Assembly (NCBI GenBank): GCA_965248055.1
Contig: CBDFIJ010000004.1
Location: 2,914,925 to 2,978,924, forward strand
Length of the DNA stretch: 64,000 nucleotides
Direction: 5' to 3'
Origin: Candidatus Multivoradales bacterium
Lineage (GTDB): Bacteria > Acidobacteriota > Thermoanaerobaculia > Multivoradales > JAHEKO01
Within the stretch, counting starts at the first letter, position 1, and each line of letters starts with the position of its first letter. Positions 56-52,439 of this stretch are shown here, one piece after another. Below the pieces are notes generated by a model, which searched no databases, was not told the origin of the DNA, and was given only the letters and a program-made list of their open reading frames with translations. Both the position numbers and the translations under genes were made by a program.

Positions 56-460
56 ATGCGATTCAAATCCGCCATCGACATCTGGCTGTGGGCCATCGTT
101 GTGCTGGAAATATTCTTGGGGATGGTGATGCTGTCGGTCACCTCCTACCTCCCTTGGCGCCAACTGGGGTTGCTGGCCTTAGCGTTTCTCCCAGCGATTG
201 TGATTCCAGTTTGGTTGTTCACTTCCACTTACTATGAAGTCCAAAGTGAGGTCTTGCGCATCAAGTGCGGGCCGTTTTCGTGGCGAATTCCGCTCGATCA
301 AATCCGCTCGGTAAAAAAGAGTCCGTCGCTGTTGTCCGGCCCGGCTCTCTCTCTGCAGCGACTGAAGATTCTCTACAACGACAACAAATCAATCGTGGTG
401 TCGCCGAAGGATCAAGAGAGGTTTCTGGCTGCCATTGGGAAGGATCTTGCGGGCAATTAG
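56..460 (+). CDS. small membrane protein with bacterial PH-like (bPH_2/YdbS-type) domain
   Basis: Two N-terminal TM helices followed by a ~90-aa soluble domain resembling bacterial PH/DUF304 proteins; ATG start. Confidence 0.45.
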   Translation: MRFKSAIDIWLWAIVVLEIFLGMVMLSVTSYLPWRQLGLLALAFLPAIVIPVWLFTSTYYEVQSEVLRIKCGPFSWRIPLDQIRSVKKSPSLLSGPALSLQRLKILYNDNKSIVVSPKDQERFLAAIGKDLAGN

Positions 461-1406
461 ACGGTGGTTTGAAACGTTGGCTGCGCTGGCGATCTTGGCT
501 GTCGGAGGTGCGACGGCACAGGACGCGAAACCGGTCACACCGGCCCCATACGTCGTTGTTCTAGGTGTCGCTCAAGACGGGGCTGTTCCCCAAGCGGGAA
601 CCAAGGACCATTCGGGTTGGCTTGATCAGCAGCATCGGCGCTTTGTCGTCAGTCTCGGGTTGGTTGATCCCGCAACCAATCAGCGATGGCTGTTCGAAGC
701 AACCCCGGATTTCCCGGAACAGTTACACCATCTGGATCAACTTGTGCCGGTGGAAGGTCGCCCAGGCCTGGATGGCATCTTCCTAACCCATGCACATATG
801 GGGCATTACACCGGTCTGATGTACCTCGGCCACGAAGTGATGGGAGCGGAGGGCGTGCCGGTGTATGCCATGCCGCAGATGCAGGACTTCTTGACCACCA
901 ACGGGCCGTGGAGCCAGTTGGTAAAATACAACAACATCGCATTGCGCTCCTTGAAAGACGGTGTCGCAGTGACGCTAAATGAACGCCTCCAAGTCACCCC
1001 GTTTCTGGTTCCGCACCGGCAGGAGTTCTCGGAAGTGGTTGGCTACCGGATTGACGGTCCCGAGAAGTCCGTGCTGTTTATTCCCGACATAGACAGTTGG
1101 CAACAGTTCGATGAGATGGGAACGCGGATTGAAGACCTGATCGCGTCGGTCGACATCGCCTACCTGGACGCCACTTTCTACGATGGCAATGAACTCCCTG
1201 GTCGCGATATGTCCGGCTTTCCCCATCCGTTTATCGTTCGCAGTATGGAACGGTTTGCCGATCTGCCGACGGAGGAAAAGGCGAAGGTGCGGTTTATTCA
1301 CTTCAACCACAGCAATCCTGTGTTGTGGAACGCTTCTGTCGCTGCTGAGACTGTTCGACAGCAGGGTTTTGCCCTGGCAAGGGCGCGGGACTTGTCGCCA
1401 TTGTGA
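435..1406 (+). CDS. secreted MBL-fold metallo-hydrolase (PqqB/PhnP-like)
   Basis: N-terminal signal peptide (AILAVGGATAQDA); H-x-H-x-G-H motif 'THAHMGHYTGL' typical of metallo-beta-lactamase fold; later Asp/His ligands (DIDSW, HFNH). Confidence 0.6.
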   Translation: MGRILRAIRRWFETLAALAILAVGGATAQDAKPVTPAPYVVVLGVAQDGAVPQAGTKDHSGWLDQQHRRFVVSLGLVDPATNQRWLFEATPDFPEQLHHLDQLVPVEGRPGLDGIFLTHAHMGHYTGLMYLGHEVMGAEGVPVYAMPQMQDFLTTNGPWSQLVKYNNIALRSLKDGVAVTLNERLQVTPFLVPHRQEFSEVVGYRIDGPEKSVLFIPDIDSWQQFDEMGTRIEDLIASVDIAYLDATFYDGNELPGRDMSGFPHPFIVRSMERFADLPTEEKAKVRFIHFNHSNPVLWNASVAAETVRQQGFALARARDLSPL

Positions 1407-1942
1407 TCATTGGAAGGAGTTGCCTGGGGAAAAGGAAGGTTTTCCAAGTTCTCATTGCGCTCGTGGGCGGATTCCTCACTCTCACAGCGTGTACACCGGC
1501 GGTCGTGGTCGGGGCGAGTGTTGCCGCCGGCGTTGTTATTTCCCAGGCTGACCCCTCAGACCGATTGAGTGAATGTCTGTGGTCCACTTCCCAAGAGTTG
1601 GGAGGGCCGTTGGGTCGCTCGATTCAGGGCGACTGCAATCTGAAAGTCAAGAAATCGGCGCTGGTCGTGCTACTTCCGGATATGGCGATCGACGACACCT
1701 CGCTCTTGGCCTTGGGAATATCAGTGGAGGAACTGAGAACCGTGCGAGAGATGGAGCGATATAGCGGTCGTCCTGGAATGGTCATTATCGACGAACGCAA
1801 GAAACGGCATCCGTCGTACAGCGCCCTCACCTTCACAGTAGTCCCCAATGTTTTGGTCTGTAGGCCACAGGATGGCTATGTCCGGTACGTGATCGACTCG
1901 AGTGCCGGTCACCCGACTGTCGTTTCGCTTGGGTGTGAATAG
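1403..1942 (+). CDS. lipoprotein, paralog A of a 3-member local family
   Basis: Lipobox LTLTAC; two conserved Cys pairs; core VVLLP...LALGISVEEL...VLVCRPQDG aligns with ORFs 2282-2815 and 4385-4879. Confidence 0.55.
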   Translation: MIIGRSCLGKRKVFQVLIALVGGFLTLTACTPAVVVGASVAAGVVISQADPSDRLSECLWSTSQELGGPLGRSIQGDCNLKVKKSALVVLLPDMAIDDTSLLALGISVEELRTVREMERYSGRPGMVIIDERKKRHPSYSALTFTVVPNVLVCRPQDGYVRYVIDSSAGHPTVVSLGCE

Positions 1943-1959
1943 TTCAAGAGGAGAAACTT

Positions 1960-2253
1960 GTGTTGGCGAAAACTTTCACGGTCATCATTGTTTCGGTGTT
2001 TGCCCTGACAGAAAAGTTGACCGCGGGTTCAGAGCAACTCACCGCCACATTTATCGGCAATGAAGCCTTCAAGATCACCGACCGGGAGGTAACCTTGTTC
2101 ACCGATTTCCCCTACCAATCGGGCGCCTACGGTTACATGGAGTACGACGAGGCGCTGGTCAAACGGACTCCAAATTCATACTGCCTATTCAGCCACGGTC
2201 ACCGGGATCACTTCGCTGCTGAGCTGGTTGGCCAAGTGGGGTGCTGTTGTTGA
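1960..2253 (+). pseudogene. truncated N-terminal fragment of MBL-fold hydrolase (UPF0173/YtkL-like)
   Basis: GTG start with AGGAGA RBS; 'YCLFSHGHRDHF' = HxHxDH motif but ORF ends after 97 aa, no C-terminal metal ligands; next gene starts 30 bp later. Confidence 0.4.
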
Positions 2254-12143: not shown

Positions 12144-13133
12144 TCAAGGAAATGTATGCGTCCATGACATTTGGCACTGATCGGTATGTTCAGCTACGTA
12201 TTGTAGCGGTGGTCTTTGTCGGTGGCTCCAGTGGGGCCTTTCGGCGTTAAACCAGAGCATCCAGTCGAAGAGTTTTTGGTTGAAAGCTTGGAGGTCAGTG
12301 AAGAGCAAGTCTTCGTTGTAGTCAACGAAGACTTGCTCTTGGATGGTTCGATTGAATCTCTCGGCTTGGGCGTTCATCTTCGGGCACCTGGGGTAGGTGT
12401 ACCAGCGTTTGATTCCAGCCTCAGCAGCTTTCTTGTCGAAGGCTCCTTGAAACTCACTACCGTTGTCTGAGAGCACGGTAGTAACAGCAAATGGCAAGAC
12501 ATCAAGGCTCAGGTCCAGAAAGCGCGCTGCCGTGCTCGAGGTGTGGGAGTTGGTGGCTATTGCCAGACTCATGCTGCTGGCGGCATCGGTCAGAGTGATC
12601 AAGTACCGGCGTTGGCCATCACAGAATCGCTCGATGGTATCTACTGCCACCCACTGACCAGGCGATCAATCCTTTGAGGCACCAAGCGCATCTTGTCGGG
12701 AGCATCGCCAATGATGCGGCCGATGGTGCTCACCGAGGGGCAGGTAATTCCCCTTACTTCACACCAGGGTTTCAACAGCGGATAGATCTTGTCCTTGCCA
12801 AGATTGGGCTCTTTGACCCGCAATCGACCGATCTCAGAGACCACCTCAGCTGGCCACTTGCGCCGTCTTCTTTTCTTCGGAGCTGTTGATTGAGGGTATT
12901 AGAGAGCTTAGCTCTCCTTTGCACCTACCAAGACGAGACTTCCAGCGGTACAGAGTCCTCCGGCTGACCGAAAATGCATCGATCGCTGCATCGATCCCAT
13001 GCTCCTGCCAGAATCTCAATGCTCGGATACGTTTCTCAGCGCTATCTTGGGTCATGACCCAAGATACCCCTAGATGACGAAGATGTCCCAGGCCTTGGAA
13101 ACGCCCTCTGATCAACCTCATGCTCATCGACAC
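12144..13133 (-). mobile_element. degraded IS481-family transposase (3 ORF fragments: HTH + rve integrase core)
   Basis: N-terminal HTH fragment (12846-13133), middle fragment (12641-12844) and DDE/rve core (12144-12650, 'LSDNGSEF...AERFNRT') in different frames = frameshifted pseudogene. Confidence 0.6.
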
Positions 13134-27185: not shown

Positions 27186-28129
27186 AAATCTCTCATGGGT
27201 CGCGAGACAGTATGCGCTTGGTAGTCGCACTGGGGGGCAACGCTTTGCTTCGGCGCGGCGAGGAGATGACTGCGGGCAATCAACGGGCCAACGTGCGGGT
27301 AGCGGTGGAGTCCCTGGCCAAGATCGCGGGCGATCATGAGTTGGTGATATCTCACGGCAATGGACCGCAAGTGGGTCTGTTGGCATTACAGGCAATGGAG
27401 AGCCCCGGTGGGGTCTATCCTTTGGACATGCTCGGCGCCGAAACCGAAGGCATGATCGGTTATCTGATTGAACAGGAACTGGGAAACCTTTTGCCCTACG
27501 AACGGCCCTTGGCCAGCTTGTTGAGCATGGTGGAAGTGGATCCCAACGACCCCGCGTTTACTGTGCCAACCAAGTTCATTGGACCGATTTACAGTGAAGA
27601 CGAGAGCCTACTACTTGAGAAGGATCGCGGTTGGACCTTCAAGAAAGATGGTCAGTACTATCGCCGGGTTGTGCCATCACCTCGGCCCAAGCAGATCTTT
27701 GAAATTCGGCCGATTAAGTGGCTGCTAGAACGCGACACTGTGGTCATCTGTTTGGGGGGTGGTGGCATTCCCACCATGTATAACGAGGATCGCAAGCTGG
27801 TTGGTGTCGAGGGCGTGATCGACAAGGATCTGGCCAGTGAGCTGTTGGCGCGCGAGATCCAGGCGGATGTCCTGGTGATGGCCACCGATGTTGACGCGGT
27901 CTATCGCGATTGGGGGACACCTGAGCAAACCGCGATCGCTACCATTCACCCCGACGACTTGGATCTCGCAGATTTTCCCGTCGGATCGATGGGGCCCAAG
28001 GTCGAGGCAGCCAAAGCCTTCGCCGCCAAGACCGGTGGACGCGCGGCGATCGGTCCGCTCAACAAACTGGCCGAGTTGGTGCAAGGGACGGCGGGGACCC
28101 AGGTGGCGCAGTCTTTCCCGCGTGCTTAA
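27179..28129 (+). CDS. arcC: carbamate kinase
   Basis: '[12 protein letters not shown]' N-terminus and overall carbamate-kinase pattern; TTG start at 27179 or ATG at 27212. Confidence 0.85.
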
Positions 28130-28186
28130 GGGACACAATGCGTGCTTACGGGACACAATAAAATTGTGTCCCGTAAATTGTGTCCC
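28121..28186. repeat. nested palindromic element (2 direct + 2 inverted copies of GGGACACAAT; inner 12-bp stem/3-nt loop hairpin 28148-28174)
   Basis: 'cgtgcttaagggacacaatg' / 'cgtgcttacgggacacaata' tandem 20-mers followed by 'attgtgtcccgtaa' + 'attgtgtccctacg'; lies exactly between convergent arcC and amidase stops. Confidence 0.55.
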
Positions 28187-29763
28187 TACGACTCCAAACT
28201 CGAATGGAACTTTGGCGGTACTCGATGCTGGGTCGCTTTTTCGTATCCGTGAGCGATCTTGAGAATCGTCGGTTCGCTCCAGGGTCCAGCAAAGAAGCTG
28301 ACCCCAACCGGTAGGCAGCGAACGTAACCGGCGGGTACGGTGACGTTGGCGAATCCGGTCATCGCTGCGGGGGTCGAGCTGCTGCCACCGAAGTGATCGC
28401 CGTTGACCCAGTCGGTGACCCATGCGGGACCGCCAGTGGGACCCATGAAGGCCGTGAGTTTGTGTTCTGCCAGTAGGCTCTTGTAGGCAACCCGTAGTTC
28501 TTTTGCTTTAGCTAAGGCATCCAAGTAGGTCTGCTCGGTTAAGTCCCCTTTGGCCTGTGATTCGATCAGGATTTCCTGGCCGAAGTGAGGCATTTCACGA
28601 TCGGTATTTGCGTCATTAAATTCGATGATCTCAGCCAAAGAACGTACGGGAGACTGCGCAAGGGACGCGAGGTACTTATTGAGGTCGGCCTTGAATTCGT
28701 AGAGCAAGATTTGGTATCCCGGTTGGTAGTACTCCTGGATGTCGAACTCCAGTTCGTCCACTACCTCAGCCCCTGCGTCGCGCAGAGCCCCGATCGCATC
28801 TTCCATCGCCCGATCGACTCCTGGATGAAAATCCATGAAGTTGCGCAATACGCCAATCCGAGTTTCGGCGAGATTGCCGTCGCCGAGTTCTGCCGAGTAG
28901 TCCGTGGGCGCGCCGGGGCTGCCGTCGGCTTGGCGCTGGCTGATTGCCGATAACAACGCTGCGGCGTCGGCTACGGTGCGCGCCATCGGCCCGGCGGTGT
29001 CCTGGCTGTGCGAAATCGGAATGATGCCTTGTCCGGGAACTAGGCCGACGGTGGGTTTGATGCCCACCAGAGAATTGGCGTTGGAGGGACAGACCACCGA
29101 GCCGTTGGTCTCGGTGCCAATGGCCACGGCGCACAGGTCCGCGGCGACCGCGGCTCCAGAACCCGAGCTGGAACCACAAGGGTTGCGGTCCAGCACGTAG
29201 GGGTTTTTGACCTGCCCACCCCGTCCGCTCCAGCCGCTGCTGGAAAAATTGGAACGAAAGTTGGCCCACTCGGAGAGATTGGTTTTGCCGATCAGAATCG
29301 CCCCGGCGTCCCGCAGATGACGGACCACCGCGGAATCTTGTTTCGGTTTCGAACCGACCAGCGCCAACGAACCAGCGGTGGTCATCATCTGGTCGGCGGT
29401 GTCCAGATTGTCTTTGACCATCACCGGAATGCCGTGCATCGGTCCGCGAACCTTACCTTCGGCGCGTTCTCGGTCCATAGCTTCGGCGATCTGGATCGCC
29501 TCAGGGTTGACTTCGAGCACCGATCGCAAGGTCGGACCGGAGCGATCAACGTGATCGATGCGGCTTAGGTAGGCCTGAGTCAGTTGCCGGGCGGTGACCT
29601 CTCCCGCTTGCATCTTGGCCTGTAGCTCAGCAACGCTGAGACCACTGAAATCGAAATCCGGGACCGTGGAACCGGGGTGGGAACGAGCCGGTTGGGCGAT
29701 CGAGGCCAGCGTTGCGGCGGCAGCTCCGCTCTTGAGTAGGTCGCGACGGTTGATTGAACTCAT
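28186..29763 (-). CDS. TAT-exported amidase (amidase-signature family)
   Basis: Twin-arginine signal 'INRRDLLKSGAAAATLA'; AS-family 'GGSSSGSGAAVAA' Ser-cisSer-Lys region. Confidence 0.8.
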   Translation of the reverse strand: MSSINRRDLLKSGAAAATLASIAQPARSHPGSTVPDFDFSGLSVAELQAKMQAGEVTARQLTQAYLSRIDHVDRSGPTLRSVLEVNPEAIQIAEAMDRERAEGKVRGPMHGIPVMVKDNLDTADQMMTTAGSLALVGSKPKQDSAVVRHLRDAGAILIGKTNLSEWANFRSNFSSSGWSGRGGQVKNPYVLDRNPCGSSSGSGAAVAADLCAVAIGTETNGSVVCPSNANSLVGIKPTVGLVPGQGIIPISHSQDTAGPMARTVADAAALLSAISQRQADGSPGAPTDYSAELGDGNLAETRIGVLRNFMDFHPGVDRAMEDAIGALRDAGAEVVDELEFDIQEYYQPGYQILLYEFKADLNKYLASLAQSPVRSLAEIIEFNDANTDREMPHFGQEILIESQAKGDLTEQTYLDALAKAKELRVAYKSLLAEHKLTAFMGPTGGPAWVTDWVNGDHFGGSSSTPAAMTGFANVTVPAGYVRCLPVGVSFFAGPWSEPTILKIAHGYEKATQHRVPPKFHSSLES

Positions 29764-39308: not shown

Positions 39309-41534
39309 CTACGCCTGCGCTGGAGGTTTTCTTCGGCGCAGGCGTTCGTTTAGCGAGGTGTTACGGCGGCTGGGCTTGTGGGTTCGAATCGCCATCTCGA
39401 CGGCGTTTTTGGGACCCAAAAGTACCACCAGCTTGGACGCTCTGGTGACCGCGGTATACAGCAAGTTGCGCACCAACATGATGTAGTGCTGGGTGTGCAG
39501 CGGAATCACCACACAGGGATATTCACTGCCCTGTGACTTGTGGATGGAACAGGCATAGGCAAGCACGATCTGGTCGAGTTCTTGGTGCTTGTAGCTCAGC
39601 AATCGTCCGTCGATCTCGATGGTTGCGGTGCGTTTGTCGAGCGCCCTGATTTCGCCGATGTCGCCGTTGTAGACCCCCAACTCATAGTTGTTGCGGATTT
39701 GCATTACCCGGTCGCCGACCCGTAGTTCGCGGCGTTCGCTCTTGAGTCGTTGGCCGTCTGGATTGAGGATCTGTTGCAGGCATGAGTTGAGATTTTCGAT
39801 CCCTAAGGTGCCACGACGCATCGGCGATAGGACTTGAATATCCCGCGTTGGGTCGAAGCCGAAGCGGGCTGGGAGACGGTCAGTCACCAAGTGTTGCAGG
39901 GTGTCGATGATTTCCTCGGGCTGTTGCCGCTCGATCCAGTAAAAATCGCCGTCGACCGCTGAGGAGGTTTGTAGATCGGTGTCGCCGTGCAAGATGCGAT
40001 GGGCGTTGGCAATAATGCGACTGTTTCTAGCCTGGCGGTAGACCTCAGTCAGGCGGATGATCGGCACCGATGCCGACGCGATGACATCGTGCAGCACCTT
40101 CCCAGGCCCCACCGACGGAAGTTGGTCGACATCGCCGGCTAGCACCAGTTGCGCAGTCGGGGGCAGGGCTCGGAGAAGGTCACGAAACAACGGTAGGTCG
40201 ATCATCGAGGCCTCGTCCACCAGAATCAGGTCGTGGGAAAGAGGCCGCTCAGCGCCGCGCAGAAAACCACCTGTGCTGGGATCGAACTCCAACAGACGGT
40301 GCAAGGTGCTGGCGTCAAAACCGGTGGTCTCTTGCAGCCGCTTAGCAGCGCGACCGGTGGGCCCAGCGAGGGCAACGCGGCGTTTCTTTTGCCGCAGGAT
40401 GTCAACGATACCGCGCACCAAGGTGGTTTTTCCGGTTCCCGGACCGCCAGTGATCACCACCACCTTGTTCTCGATTGCCTGGCGGATCGCTGATCTCTGC
40501 GCTTCGGCCAGCTCGATTTGTTCCTGAGCTTCAAACCACTTCAGTGCTTTGTCGACTTGGATGCGAAACGGCTTCAGCGGGGCTGCGTTTAATCGAAACA
40601 GGAGCTTCGCAGCTTCCTCTTCGGCTGCCCACAGCTCCGCCAGGTAGGCACGGCCCTGGTCAATCTGCAGTCTTCTTTGCTTCACCAACTGTTGCATTCC
40701 GGTGGTGATCGCCGGCTCGGCTACTTGCAGCAGTTCCGATGCCTGTTGCAGCGCAGAGGACAGCGGCAGAAATACGTGTCCCTGTTCTCTGGCCCGCCCC
40801 AGAATGTGAAGCACGCCAGCCGCCACCCTGCTCGGTGCTTCCCCCACTACACCCAGGGATTGAGCCAGTCGATCTGAGGTATGAAAACCAATACCCGAGA
40901 AATCCAGGGCCAAGCGGTAGGGATCTGCCTCGACCACTTCCGCGGCGTTGCCACCGTAAAGCTTGGCCACCCGTTGCGCTTGGGCCAGGCCCATCCCGCC
41001 TCCCTGCAGCATCACCAGGACTTTCTGCTGGGAGGCATGCAGGCGCAGCGCCTTGCCAATCGATCGAGCCCGCTTGGGACCGATTCCGGAAACCCGGTTG
41101 AGCTTCTGTGGGGAGTCGATACCGACTTCCAGCACCTGCTCGCCGAATTCAGCCACCAAGCGCTCAGCCAGAGAACGACCAATACCTGGGATCAACCCGG
41201 AGGCCAGGAAACGCAGCACGCCCTCTTTGCTTGCCGGCGGCACCACGCGGGCTTCTTGCGCCCGCAACTGCATGCCGAATTTCGGTTGTAGCTCCAGTTT
41301 CCCCGACGCTTCCAGTTCTTCGCCCGGTTCAACCGGGGGGAGCGAACCGACCACAGTCAGAGGTTTGCCGCCAGCGACACGAATTCGCACCACCGCCCAT
41401 CCGCCATCATCTGAGCGAAAAATGACCCGCTCAACCGGTCCTCGGGCGGTATGTCCAGAGTGGCTGGTGGCGCGATCGGTTGGCTTGGCAGGGAAAGGGG
41501 AATCCATCCGCCAATTGTGCCAGAATGGCGCCAT
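39309..41534 (-). CDS. recD2: ATP-dependent RecD-like DNA helicase (RecD2)
   Basis: Walker A 'VITGGPGTGKTT', 'DEASMID', C-terminal 'YACSIHKSQGSEYPCVVIPL'. Confidence 0.8.
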   Translation of the reverse strand: MAPFWHNWRMDSPFPAKPTDRATSHSGHTARGPVERVIFRSDDGGWAVVRIRVAGGKPLTVVGSLPPVEPGEELEASGKLELQPKFGMQLRAQEARVVPPASKEGVLRFLASGLIPGIGRSLAERLVAEFGEQVLEVGIDSPQKLNRVSGIGPKRARSIGKALRLHASQQKVLVMLQGGGMGLAQAQRVAKLYGGNAAEVVEADPYRLALDFSGIGFHTSDRLAQSLGVVGEAPSRVAAGVLHILGRAREQGHVFLPLSSALQQASELLQVAEPAITTGMQQLVKQRRLQIDQGRAYLAELWAAEEEAAKLLFRLNAAPLKPFRIQVDKALKWFEAQEQIELAEAQRSAIRQAIENKVVVITGGPGTGKTTLVRGIVDILRQKKRRVALAGPTGRAAKRLQETTGFDASTLHRLLEFDPSTGGFLRGAERPLSHDLILVDEASMIDLPLFRDLLRALPPTAQLVLAGDVDQLPSVGPGKVLHDVIASASVPIIRLTEVYRQARNSRIIANAHRILHGDTDLQTSSAVDGDFYWIERQQPEEIIDTLQHLVTDRLPARFGFDPTRDIQVLSPMRRGTLGIENLNSCLQQILNPDGQRLKSERRELRVGDRVMQIRNNYELGVYNGDIGEIRALDKRTATIEIDGRLLSYKHQELDQIVLAYACSIHKSQGSEYPCVVIPLHTQHYIMLVRNLLYTAVTRASKLVVLLGPKNAVEMAIRTHKPSRRNTSLNERLRRRKPPAQA

Positions 41535-51202: not shown

Positions 51203-51279
51203 TGGTGGCGGTGACGGGACTCGAACCCATGACCTAGCGGTTATGAGCCGCTCGCTCTAACCAGCTGAGCTACACCGCC
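51203..51279 (-). tRNA. tRNA with CAU anticodon (elongator Met or tRNA-Ile2 lysidine substrate)
   Basis: Cloverleaf GGCGGTG-TA-GCTC..GAGC-AGCGG-CTCATAA-CCGCT-...-CACCGCC-A-CCA; G1:C72 and non-GGG/CCC anticodon stem exclude initiator. Confidence 0.8.
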
Positions 51280-52258: not shown

Positions 52259-52333
52259 GGGAGGTTAGCTCAGTGGGAGAGCATCTGCCTTACACGCAGA
52301 GGGTCGGGGGTTCAAGCCCCCCACCTCCCACCA
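52259..52333 (+). tRNA. tRNA-Val (anticodon TAC)
   Basis: GGGAGGT..anticodon loop CTTACAC..ACCTCCC-A-CCA. Confidence 0.85.
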
Positions 52334-52360: not shown

Positions 52361-52439
52361 GGGGGCGTAGTTCAGTTTTGGTTAGAACGCCGGCCTGTCA
52401 AGCCGGAGGTCGCGGGTTCAAGTCCCGTCGCTCCCGCCA
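52361..52439 (+). tRNA. tRNA-Asp (anticodon GTC)
   Basis: GGGGGCG..anticodon loop CTGTCAA..CGCTCCC-G-CCA. Confidence 0.85.

Follow-up and report, generated by a model that had tools for sequence, protein, structure and literature searches.

A nested palindrome between two convergent genes

The window analyzed here is a 64-kb stretch (64,000 nucleotides) of contig CBDFIJ010000004.1 from Candidatus Multivoradales bacterium (Acidobacteriota), and the feature under study is a four-copy palindromic element located where the carbamate kinase gene arcC and a convergently oriented amidase gene meet (Table 1). The identities of ornithine carbamoyltransferase, carbamate kinase, and amidase hold, with scores above or near the curated cut-offs: The arcC product, which is 100% identical to protein P0001 (305 amino acids), lies above the NCBIfam cut-off for both NF009008 and TIGR00746, and the amidase reaches 649.7 bits with NCBIfam NF006006 (cut-off 534).

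The element is built from a tandem pair of the unit GCGTGCTTA[A/C]GGGACACAAT (28120-28159), an AAA loop, and an inverted pair (28163-28190), i.e., it is organized as a head-to-head dimer with one additional direct copy on each side. An initial annotation, made from the sequence of the window, had described two tandem 20-mers followed by two inverted copies, which are present after a register shift by one base, and had rightly placed the TAA stop codon of arcC (28127-28129) within the first of them, i.e., direct copy 1. Its inner stem is indeed perfect and closed by an AAA loop, but comprises 14 bp rather than the 12 bp that had been given. Direct copies 1 and 2 are 95% identical 20-mers that differ in a single base, and a repeat search recovered perfect stems of 14 bp (inner; 28146-28159/28163-28176) and 11 bp (outer; 28129-28139/28177-28187). 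The motif GGGACACNAT matches four times in the window, always at the palindrome, compared to 0.61 matches expected from shuffled sequence, and no copy of the core 10-mer GGGACACAAT was found elsewhere in these 64 kb. The four-copy pattern is real and far beyond chance.

The base directly ahead of GGGACAC is A, C, C, and A in copies 1 to 4 (NGGGACAC with N at this position). The feet of the units read TTAA, TTAC, and TTAC, and only copy 4 has a GTAG foot, which lies at 28187-28190 of the minus strand and coincides in part with the stop codon of the amidase gene; the feet of the inner palindrome are TTAC/GTAA. A unit of GGGACACAAT plus 4-10 nt of flanking sequence has no internal complementarity, and pairing occurs only between units. 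No direct repeat of the kind left by target-site duplication bounds the palindrome, which has CTTA(A) as its left and TACGAC as its right flank. The initial annotation had not remarked that the amidase stop codon (TAG, minus strand, 28186-28188) overlaps copy 4 of the element by one base, the first of the codon and the last of the copy. The convergent arcC and amidase genes thus both terminate within the outer stem.

Table 1. Features of the arcC/amidase junction (window positions) and stutter arrays at related loci (positions within each locus).
Feature	Position	Strand	Description
Carbamate kinase gene arcC	27212..28129	+	product of 305 amino acids; longest open reading frame from 27179
Direct copy 1	28120..28139	+	GCGTGCTTAAGGGACACAAT: arcC 3' end GCGTGCTTAA, then core GGGACACAAT
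Whole nested hairpin	28129..28187		outer stem around the inner stem, with a 6-nt bulge on one side
Direct copy 2	28140..28159	+	GCGTGCTTACGGGACACAAT: GCGTGCTTAC plus core; tandem duplicate repeating 9 nt of arcC coding sequence
Inner perfect palindrome	28146..28176		TTACGGGACACAAT-AAA-ATTGTGTCCCGTAA; 14-bp stem, 3-nt loop
Loop AAA	28160-28162		
Inverted copy 3	28163..28176	-	ATTGTGTCCCGTAA; core plus GTAA
Inverted copy 4	28177..28190	-	ATTGTGTCCCTACG; core plus TACG; minus-strand reading GTAGGGACACAAT
Amidase gene	28186..29763	-	convergent with arcC; C-terminus ...LES, TAG stop
Stutter array, L091	~250-370		
Stutter array, L092	~1950-2050		
Stutter array, L057	3950-4060		
Stutter array, L073	4730-4830		
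Stutter array, L163	~110-243		
Stutter array, L180	~1400-1500		

Folding of both strands, which the initial annotation had proposed, predicts a very stable hairpin on each of them: As RNA, the element folds with -37.7 to -50.5 kcal/mol (z -5.6 to -8.7), as DNA with about -26.5 kcal/mol (z -8.5 to -9.5), and equally good folds were obtained in 0/200 shuffles; the DNA fold of the inner palindrome alone reaches -14.7 kcal/mol (z -10). The element is similar to an intrinsic terminator in that a stable stem-loop directly follows the stop codons and, being symmetric, forms on both transcripts. Unlike such a terminator, it lacks a U-tract 3' of the stem in both directions (downstream sequence, ACGACUCCAAAC for the plus and UAAGCACGCGGG for the minus strand), the top of the stem is AT-rich, and a terminator scan made no prediction at the palindrome site. 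The earlier judgment that this is no textbook intrinsic terminator therefore stands. A permissive Rfam search of the palindrome site gave no match.

Three relatives with 78-80% arcC identity keep the gene order of HtrA, ornithine carbamoyltransferase, and arcC, followed by convergent genes for amidase, an oxidoreductase, and a VTT protein. Their arcC/amidase spacers (97 nt in L120, ~300 nt in L121) are unrelated to that of the window, and the palindrome motif is absent from these orthologous spacers. A different GC-rich hairpin and a shared block are found in the spacers of two relatives; this hairpin, GGGAGGGGC..GCCCCTCCC with GTAG-like flanks, lies at L119 4925-5080, L121 4990-5140, and L122 1524-1546, while the block of about 75 nt is common to the spacers of L119 and L121. 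We searched the window for the GGGAGGGGC..GCCCCTCCC hairpin and found it absent. The arcC/amidase spacer seems to be a site that collects palindromic repeats. Since the amidase of L120 has the same ...LES-TAG ending as that of the window, this ending is ancestral. In contrast, the element seems to have replaced the last codon and stop of arcC, because the relatives' proteins end in RAS, RSS, or RQS and that of the window in PRA. With a single left copy (TTAC) only, arcC would, judged from the sequence, read through the core to a TAA formed at the loop. The left 20-nt unit holds 6-9 nt of true arcC coding sequence, and the duplication therefore probably happened in place, after the element had arrived.

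A dispersed hairpin family and its Y1 transposase genes

We scanned one genome per species from 185,579 species for the pattern GGGACACAAT-N(1-30)-ATTGTGTCCC, i.e., the family described below was retrieved with the window's own 10-mer, and hairpin statistics refer to the matches listed. At least 118 stretches match this pattern, compared to a chance expectation of ~16 (596e9 x 30 / 4^20, assuming equal base frequencies). The matches listed span Elusimicrobia, Alphaproteobacteria, Desulfobacterota, Planctomycetota, Omnitrophota, Acidobacteriota, and others, including a metagenome-assembled genome (MAG) of the Thermoanaerobaculia (L005) and other Acidobacteriota (L033 and L078), and several assemblies such as JACZUY01, CBFCWR01, JAJZVW01, and MGUA01 hold at least 3-5 separate loci each.

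The hairpins also share sequence context that the search pattern had not demanded. Among those with a loop of at least 3 nt, a G precedes the core in 83-88%; in the long-loop hairpins, AC follows it in 85-89%. The long-loop class has the form X-GGGGACACAATAC(TTAATTC or CTATTTC)-loop-(GAATTAAG or GAAATAGG)TATTGTGTCCCC-X', where the outer 6-9 nt (X) are complementary and X resembles itself between copies of one genome. Hairpins with a loop of at most 2 nt are mostly (G)TAGGGACACAAT-NN-ATTGTGTCCCTA(C), with an A before the core in 8/9. A short-loop variant, GTAGGGACACAATATATTGTGTCCCTAC, has GTAG/CTAC feet and occurs at L040 2501-2522, L041 1564-1585, L059 3229-3250, and L096 2544-2565 and 3362-3383. 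It contains a perfect NrdR-box-like 16-mer; ribonucleotide reductase genes do not adjoin these GTAGGGACACAATATATTGTGTCCCTAC hairpins.

According to a crude call of open reading frames (ORFs), the hairpins are mostly intergenic and occur in every gene orientation. Apart from two cases with a transposase gene, no recurrent neighbor gene was seen among the 118 listed loci. Rfam at gathering thresholds returned nothing but tRNAs and one unrelated leader for 14 family loci and the whole window, and a full-text literature search for the 10-mer or 12-mer retrieved only primers, aptamers, and similar.

In these two cases, pairs of the hairpin bracket an ORF of 222-228 amino acids (L097, hairpins at 1551-1589 and 2289-2327; L029, hairpins at 2-43 and 1218-1259). 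The two proteins are 42% identical, match Pfam Y1_Tnp with E-values of 2e-14 (L097) and 2.5e-7 (L029), and have the REP-associated tyrosine transposase (RAYT; REP for repetitive extragenic palindromic) as their best NCBIfam match, just under the cut-off. They carry the motifs NHVH, WQ/FQ, and YVELNP/YAERNP. Both hairpins around the L029 transposase gene are the same 42-mer as the dispersed hairpins of L106 and L068 (L106 890-931 and 4562-4603; L068 6079-6120). L106 and L068 belong to Elusimicrobia MAGs and the L029 contig has been binned as Phycisphaerales, so that either this 2.6-kb contig is mis-binned or the element recently moved between phyla.

An alignment of the L097 and L029 proteins was used to retrieve 80 metagenomic loci (L123-L202) that encode relatives. 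The sequence GGGACACAAT is present as an exact match in 14/80 of these loci and with at most one mismatch in 49/80, and the core has fixed positions relative to the gene: It lies on the coding strand ~54 nt ahead of the ATG and recurs, as an inverted copy, just after the stop codon. The looser motif GGGWSA is found in 69/75 upstream and 52/65 downstream flanks. As a consensus, the ends read (G)AATTCCG-GGGACAC(C/A)(A/T)TACTTAATT, with the upstream repeat followed by TTGAC. In many of the 80 loci TTGAC follows this repeat directly, about 25-54 nt before the transposase ATG, which suggests that the element end supplies the -35 part of the promoter of this gene. Because the core flanks the gene at fixed inverted positions, the transposase gene occupies, as it were, the "loop" of a long palindrome, the same one that forms the ~40-nt hairpins where the gene is absent. 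The initial annotation had considered the window element REP-like or similar to a miniature inverted-repeat transposable element (MITE). This view is supported by the identity of the core with the conserved terminal repeat of a widespread clade of REP-associated-type Y1 transposase genes and by the dispersed hairpins, intergenic and multi-copy, in many genomes, but fails for a classical MITE at the lack of a target-site duplication and for a canonical REP at units that are not self-palindromic.

Many family hairpins and transposase-gene ends are additionally bordered by tandem "stutter" copies of flank and partial core, which restart at the same outer point, reach to variable depth into the core, and are frequently mirrored on both sides (e.g., L085 and L117 as well as the arrays of Table 1). 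In a test with exact 9-mers, stutter was detected at 23/123 of the hairpins listed, and on both sides at 8 of them, compared to 13/2460 random positions. Nests of two plus two copies like that of the window are found at L057, L032, L117, and L073, and by their sequence the two direct and two inverted copies of the window appear to have the stutter architecture in common with them.

Origin of the element

Relevant background on such transposases comes from three papers. Di Nocera et al. 2013 (PMC3733652) describe TIRtrons, in which RAYT-like (TIRYT) genes lie between long terminal inverted repeats (TIRs) sharing GGGGWSAS, together with "moderately abundant families of TIRs" whose copies are single, dimeric, or grouped; Acidobacteria are reported there as carriers of TIRYT genes. 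The transposase genes with inverted flanking repeats found here correspond to this TIRtron/TIRYT system. The majority of TIRYTs are assigned by Quentin et al. 2018 (PMC6006769) to TnpA-Y1 subclass 2.1, corresponding to RAYT Group 1 of Bertels and colleagues, with the motifs NHVH, W[EQ]/FQ, and YIELNP, a median length of 238 amino acids, and a C-terminal helix-turn-helix; the motifs of the L097 and L029 proteins agree with this description. According to Bertels et al. 2017 (PMC5581495), no other group is as large or as widely distributed as Group 1, whose flanking 16-mers occur in ~12 copies per replicon.

We consider it rather probable, from sequence comparison, that the element in the window, a palindrome of head-to-head units without a gene, derives from the terminal repeat of a Y1 (HUH) TIRYT/TIRtron (RAYT Group 1, TnpA-Y1 subclass 2.1), and we propose by analogy that its role is that of a REPIN (a hairpin of two inverted REP units) for canonical RAYTs. 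It is most likely an ordinary though neat example of a known, little-studied mobile-element family and not a new kind of signal. The window 10-mer is identical (10/10) to the conserved core of the transposase terminal repeat, and for one given 10-mer ~0.1 random occurrences are expected in the window. Several observations nevertheless weigh against this derivation. The fourth G is missing in all four copies, so that GGGGWSAS is matched at 7/8 positions, and the inner part of the end (ACTTAATT) is missing from them; the 64-kb window contains no second copy of the element, and tblastn found no Y1 transposase homologue in it. The strict stutter test did not flag the window, because its two left units are not identical (one base differs) and its right units have nothing but the core in common. 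Finally, since the family was found with the window's own 10-mer, membership rests on the coherence of the retrieved family and not on an independent model.

IS200/IS608 TnpA and the RAYT of E. coli belong to the Y1 HUH enzymes, and both are known to bind hairpins in single-stranded DNA and to cut them. From this established behavior we infer the substrate, the action in trans, and the nick site in the following scheme. In full elements, the two ends would pair in single-stranded DNA as a stem with the transposase gene in the loop; the small hairpins would mimic this paired-end stem without the gene. Either the paired ends or the mini-hairpin could then serve as substrate of a TIRYT that makes or moves hairpins in trans on single-stranded DNA at the replication fork, and the fixed restart point of the stutter may be a nick or priming site at the outer foot. 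At our locus, one copy would have landed at the extreme end of arcC, displacing its last codon and stop, after which local reduplication (20 nt to the left, 14 nt to the right) would have resulted in four copies.

With the stop codons of the two genes placed in the outer stem, each of the convergent messenger RNAs should end in a hairpin of ~-38 kcal/mol. It is known from REP biology in E. coli that a transcribed hairpin at a stop codon can protect the 3' end or affect termination or translation. By analogy, the shared 3' hairpin probably acts as a barrier to 3' exonucleases and as a local modulator of termination or translation rather than as a U-tract terminator. If our reading of the element is right, the odd four-copy palindrome is explained as a mobile-element relic instead of a dedicated regulatory signal, and the locus illustrates how a mobile element can supply the stop codon of a gene and give two convergent genes a common 3' hairpin. 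Beyond this locus, the sequence comparisons suggest that RAYT Group 1/TIRYT, the largest and least understood group, has a cross-phylum end motif, GGGGACAC(A/C)(A/T)TAC, and that its traces in many uncultured lineages are hairpin dimers with distinctive stutter arrays. Motif and hairpin dimers together would provide a concrete DNA substrate for studying how TIRYT enzymes act. A further step, which we regard as doubtful, is that the stutter arrays are footprints that TIRYT enzymes leave where the paired ends have their foot, through an uncharacterized reaction of reiterative copying or of cleavage and rejoining, with the nest in the window as a recent product that rewrote the last codon and stop of arcC. 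If true, Group 1 RAYTs would maintain active REPIN-like populations across many uncultured phyla, in contrast to Quentin et al. 2018 (PMC6006769), whose automated and manual searches are described as finding no REP-like sequences for subclass 2.1.

Alternatively, the palindrome may have evolved locally as a 3'-end hairpin common to arcC and the amidase gene, a bidirectional terminator or messenger RNA stabilizer that arose by tandem duplication and template switching and resembles transposase ends by coincidence. The site exactly between two convergent stop codons, the very stable hairpin on both strands, and the uniqueness of the element in 64 kb fit such an origin, and because the left duplication includes arcC coding sequence, at least part of the structure arose locally. 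We still consider this origin unlikely: Complete identity (10/10) with the best-conserved stretch of transposase ends across phyla would be very improbable by chance, the head-to-head and stutter architecture is that of the family, relatives manage with unrelated spacers, a U-tract is lacking on both strands, and the terminator scan was blank. Quite improbable in our view, though a close variant, is a canonical GTAG-tagged or "double-foot" REP of another RAYT subclass, e.g., TnpA-Y1 subclass 2.4, for which "double foot" REPs are described (Quentin et al. 2018, PMC6006769). The minus-strand sequence of copy 4, GTAGGGACACAAT, and the short-loop hairpins, which likewise have GTAGGG... and mostly an A before the core, would suit a REP of this type, but GTAG is seen in 1/4 copies only and coincides there with the ancestral TAG stop of the amidase, the inner palindrome has other feet, and no RAYT was found adjoining the short-loop hairpins at the listed loci. 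It also speaks against a canonical REP/REPIN that the units of the element are not imperfect palindromes; a classical MITE of a DDE transposon was rejected, as no target-site duplication bounds the palindrome.

Four exact copies of a 10-mer in symmetric arrangement could also be half-sites on double-stranded DNA for a transcription factor, either NrdR (ACACAAT..ATTGTGT) or a regulator of the arginine pathway, but we find this far-fetched given that they lie at the 3' ends of two convergent genes, that no promoter-like site is nearby, and that the motif is tied to transposase gene ends instead. The NrdR box has the consensus acaCwAtATaTwGtgt and is a 16-bp palindrome with a 2-nt center that usually occurs in tandem upstream of nrd genes; the inner sequence ACACAATAAAATTGTGT resembles this consensus. 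An NrdR box was rejected in view of the 3-nt center, the length of 17 bp instead of 16 bp, and the location between the arcC and amidase 3' ends, and hairpins elsewhere that contain a perfect box-like 16-mer do not adjoin nrd genes. Hardly credible, finally, is an assembly or consensus artifact at a palindrome in a low-coverage long-read metagenome contig: The source appears to be a 3.35-Mb metagenomic contig, and the names of related contigs from the same kind of assembly suggest 8-9x coverage, but nests of this architecture are seen again in many other assemblies, produced independently and by different methods, and both reading frames end cleanly at plausible stops.

Other features of the window are the following. 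Its PyrG protein is 79-84% identical to the closest named matches, which are proteins from Thermoanaerobaculia/Acidobacteriota MAGs; this places the window in that lineage and argues against a planctomycete as its source. A degraded IS3-like transposase gene at 12144-13071 (with rve and rve_3 domains in the minus-strand ORF 12144-12650) contains a perfect 18-bp palindrome at 12301-12340, and a 17-bp palindrome lies at 13038-13071. At another convergent junction, an imperfect 15-bp hairpin (39311-39345) overlaps the 3' end of a RecD2-like helicase gene (39309-41534, minus strand); in sequence, this hairpin bears no relation to the GGGACACAAT element. The sole Rfam matches in the window are three tRNA genes at 51206-51279 (-), 52259-52330 (+), and 52361-52436 (+). 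An enrichment of HIP1-like GCGATCGC in the window is not significant (6 observed versus 2.9 expected).

Comparison with known repeat systems

With the TIRs of TIRtrons (PMC3733652) the element shares a core that is the conserved part of the ends around transposase relatives (consensus GGGGACAC(C/A)(A/T)TAC), a location between genes, and an arrangement as head-to-head dimer or group like that of the published TIR families. It agrees with GGGGWSAS at 7/8 positions and differs from the TIRs in that its copies have three G's rather than four and keep ~14 nt of a roughly 30-nt end. The stutter arrays and the 13-nt core shared across phyla are not mentioned in the excerpts of the TIRYT/RAYT literature that we consulted.

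REPINs and bacterial interspersed mosaic elements (BIMEs) of RAYTs (Bertels & Rainey 2011, PMC3116915; Nunvar et al. 2010, PMC2817692) are similarly composed of two inverted units that form a long hairpin, and they are non-autonomous, intergenic, often located downstream of genes, and linked to a single-copy Y1 transposase gene with the same flanking repeats. Yet a canonical REP unit forms an imperfect palindrome on its own and has a GT[AG]G foot at its 5' end, whereas the unit in the window is not self-complementary and shows GTAG in one copy only. With regard to function, a 2026 preprint views REPs as "local, context-dependent, dual 3'UTR regulators." The subterminal hairpins of IS200/IS605 elements and their miniature derivatives are comparable in that a Y1 HUH transposase acts on hairpins of single-stranded DNA and no target-site duplication is made, but the ends of IS200/IS605 are asymmetric, with different left and right hairpins instead of inverted repeats, and the transposase subclass differs (Y..NP in the element's family, not Y...Q). 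The TIRYT terminal-repeat kind of the element is already known; the aspects that most deserve further attention are its stutter arrays and the wide spread of the family.

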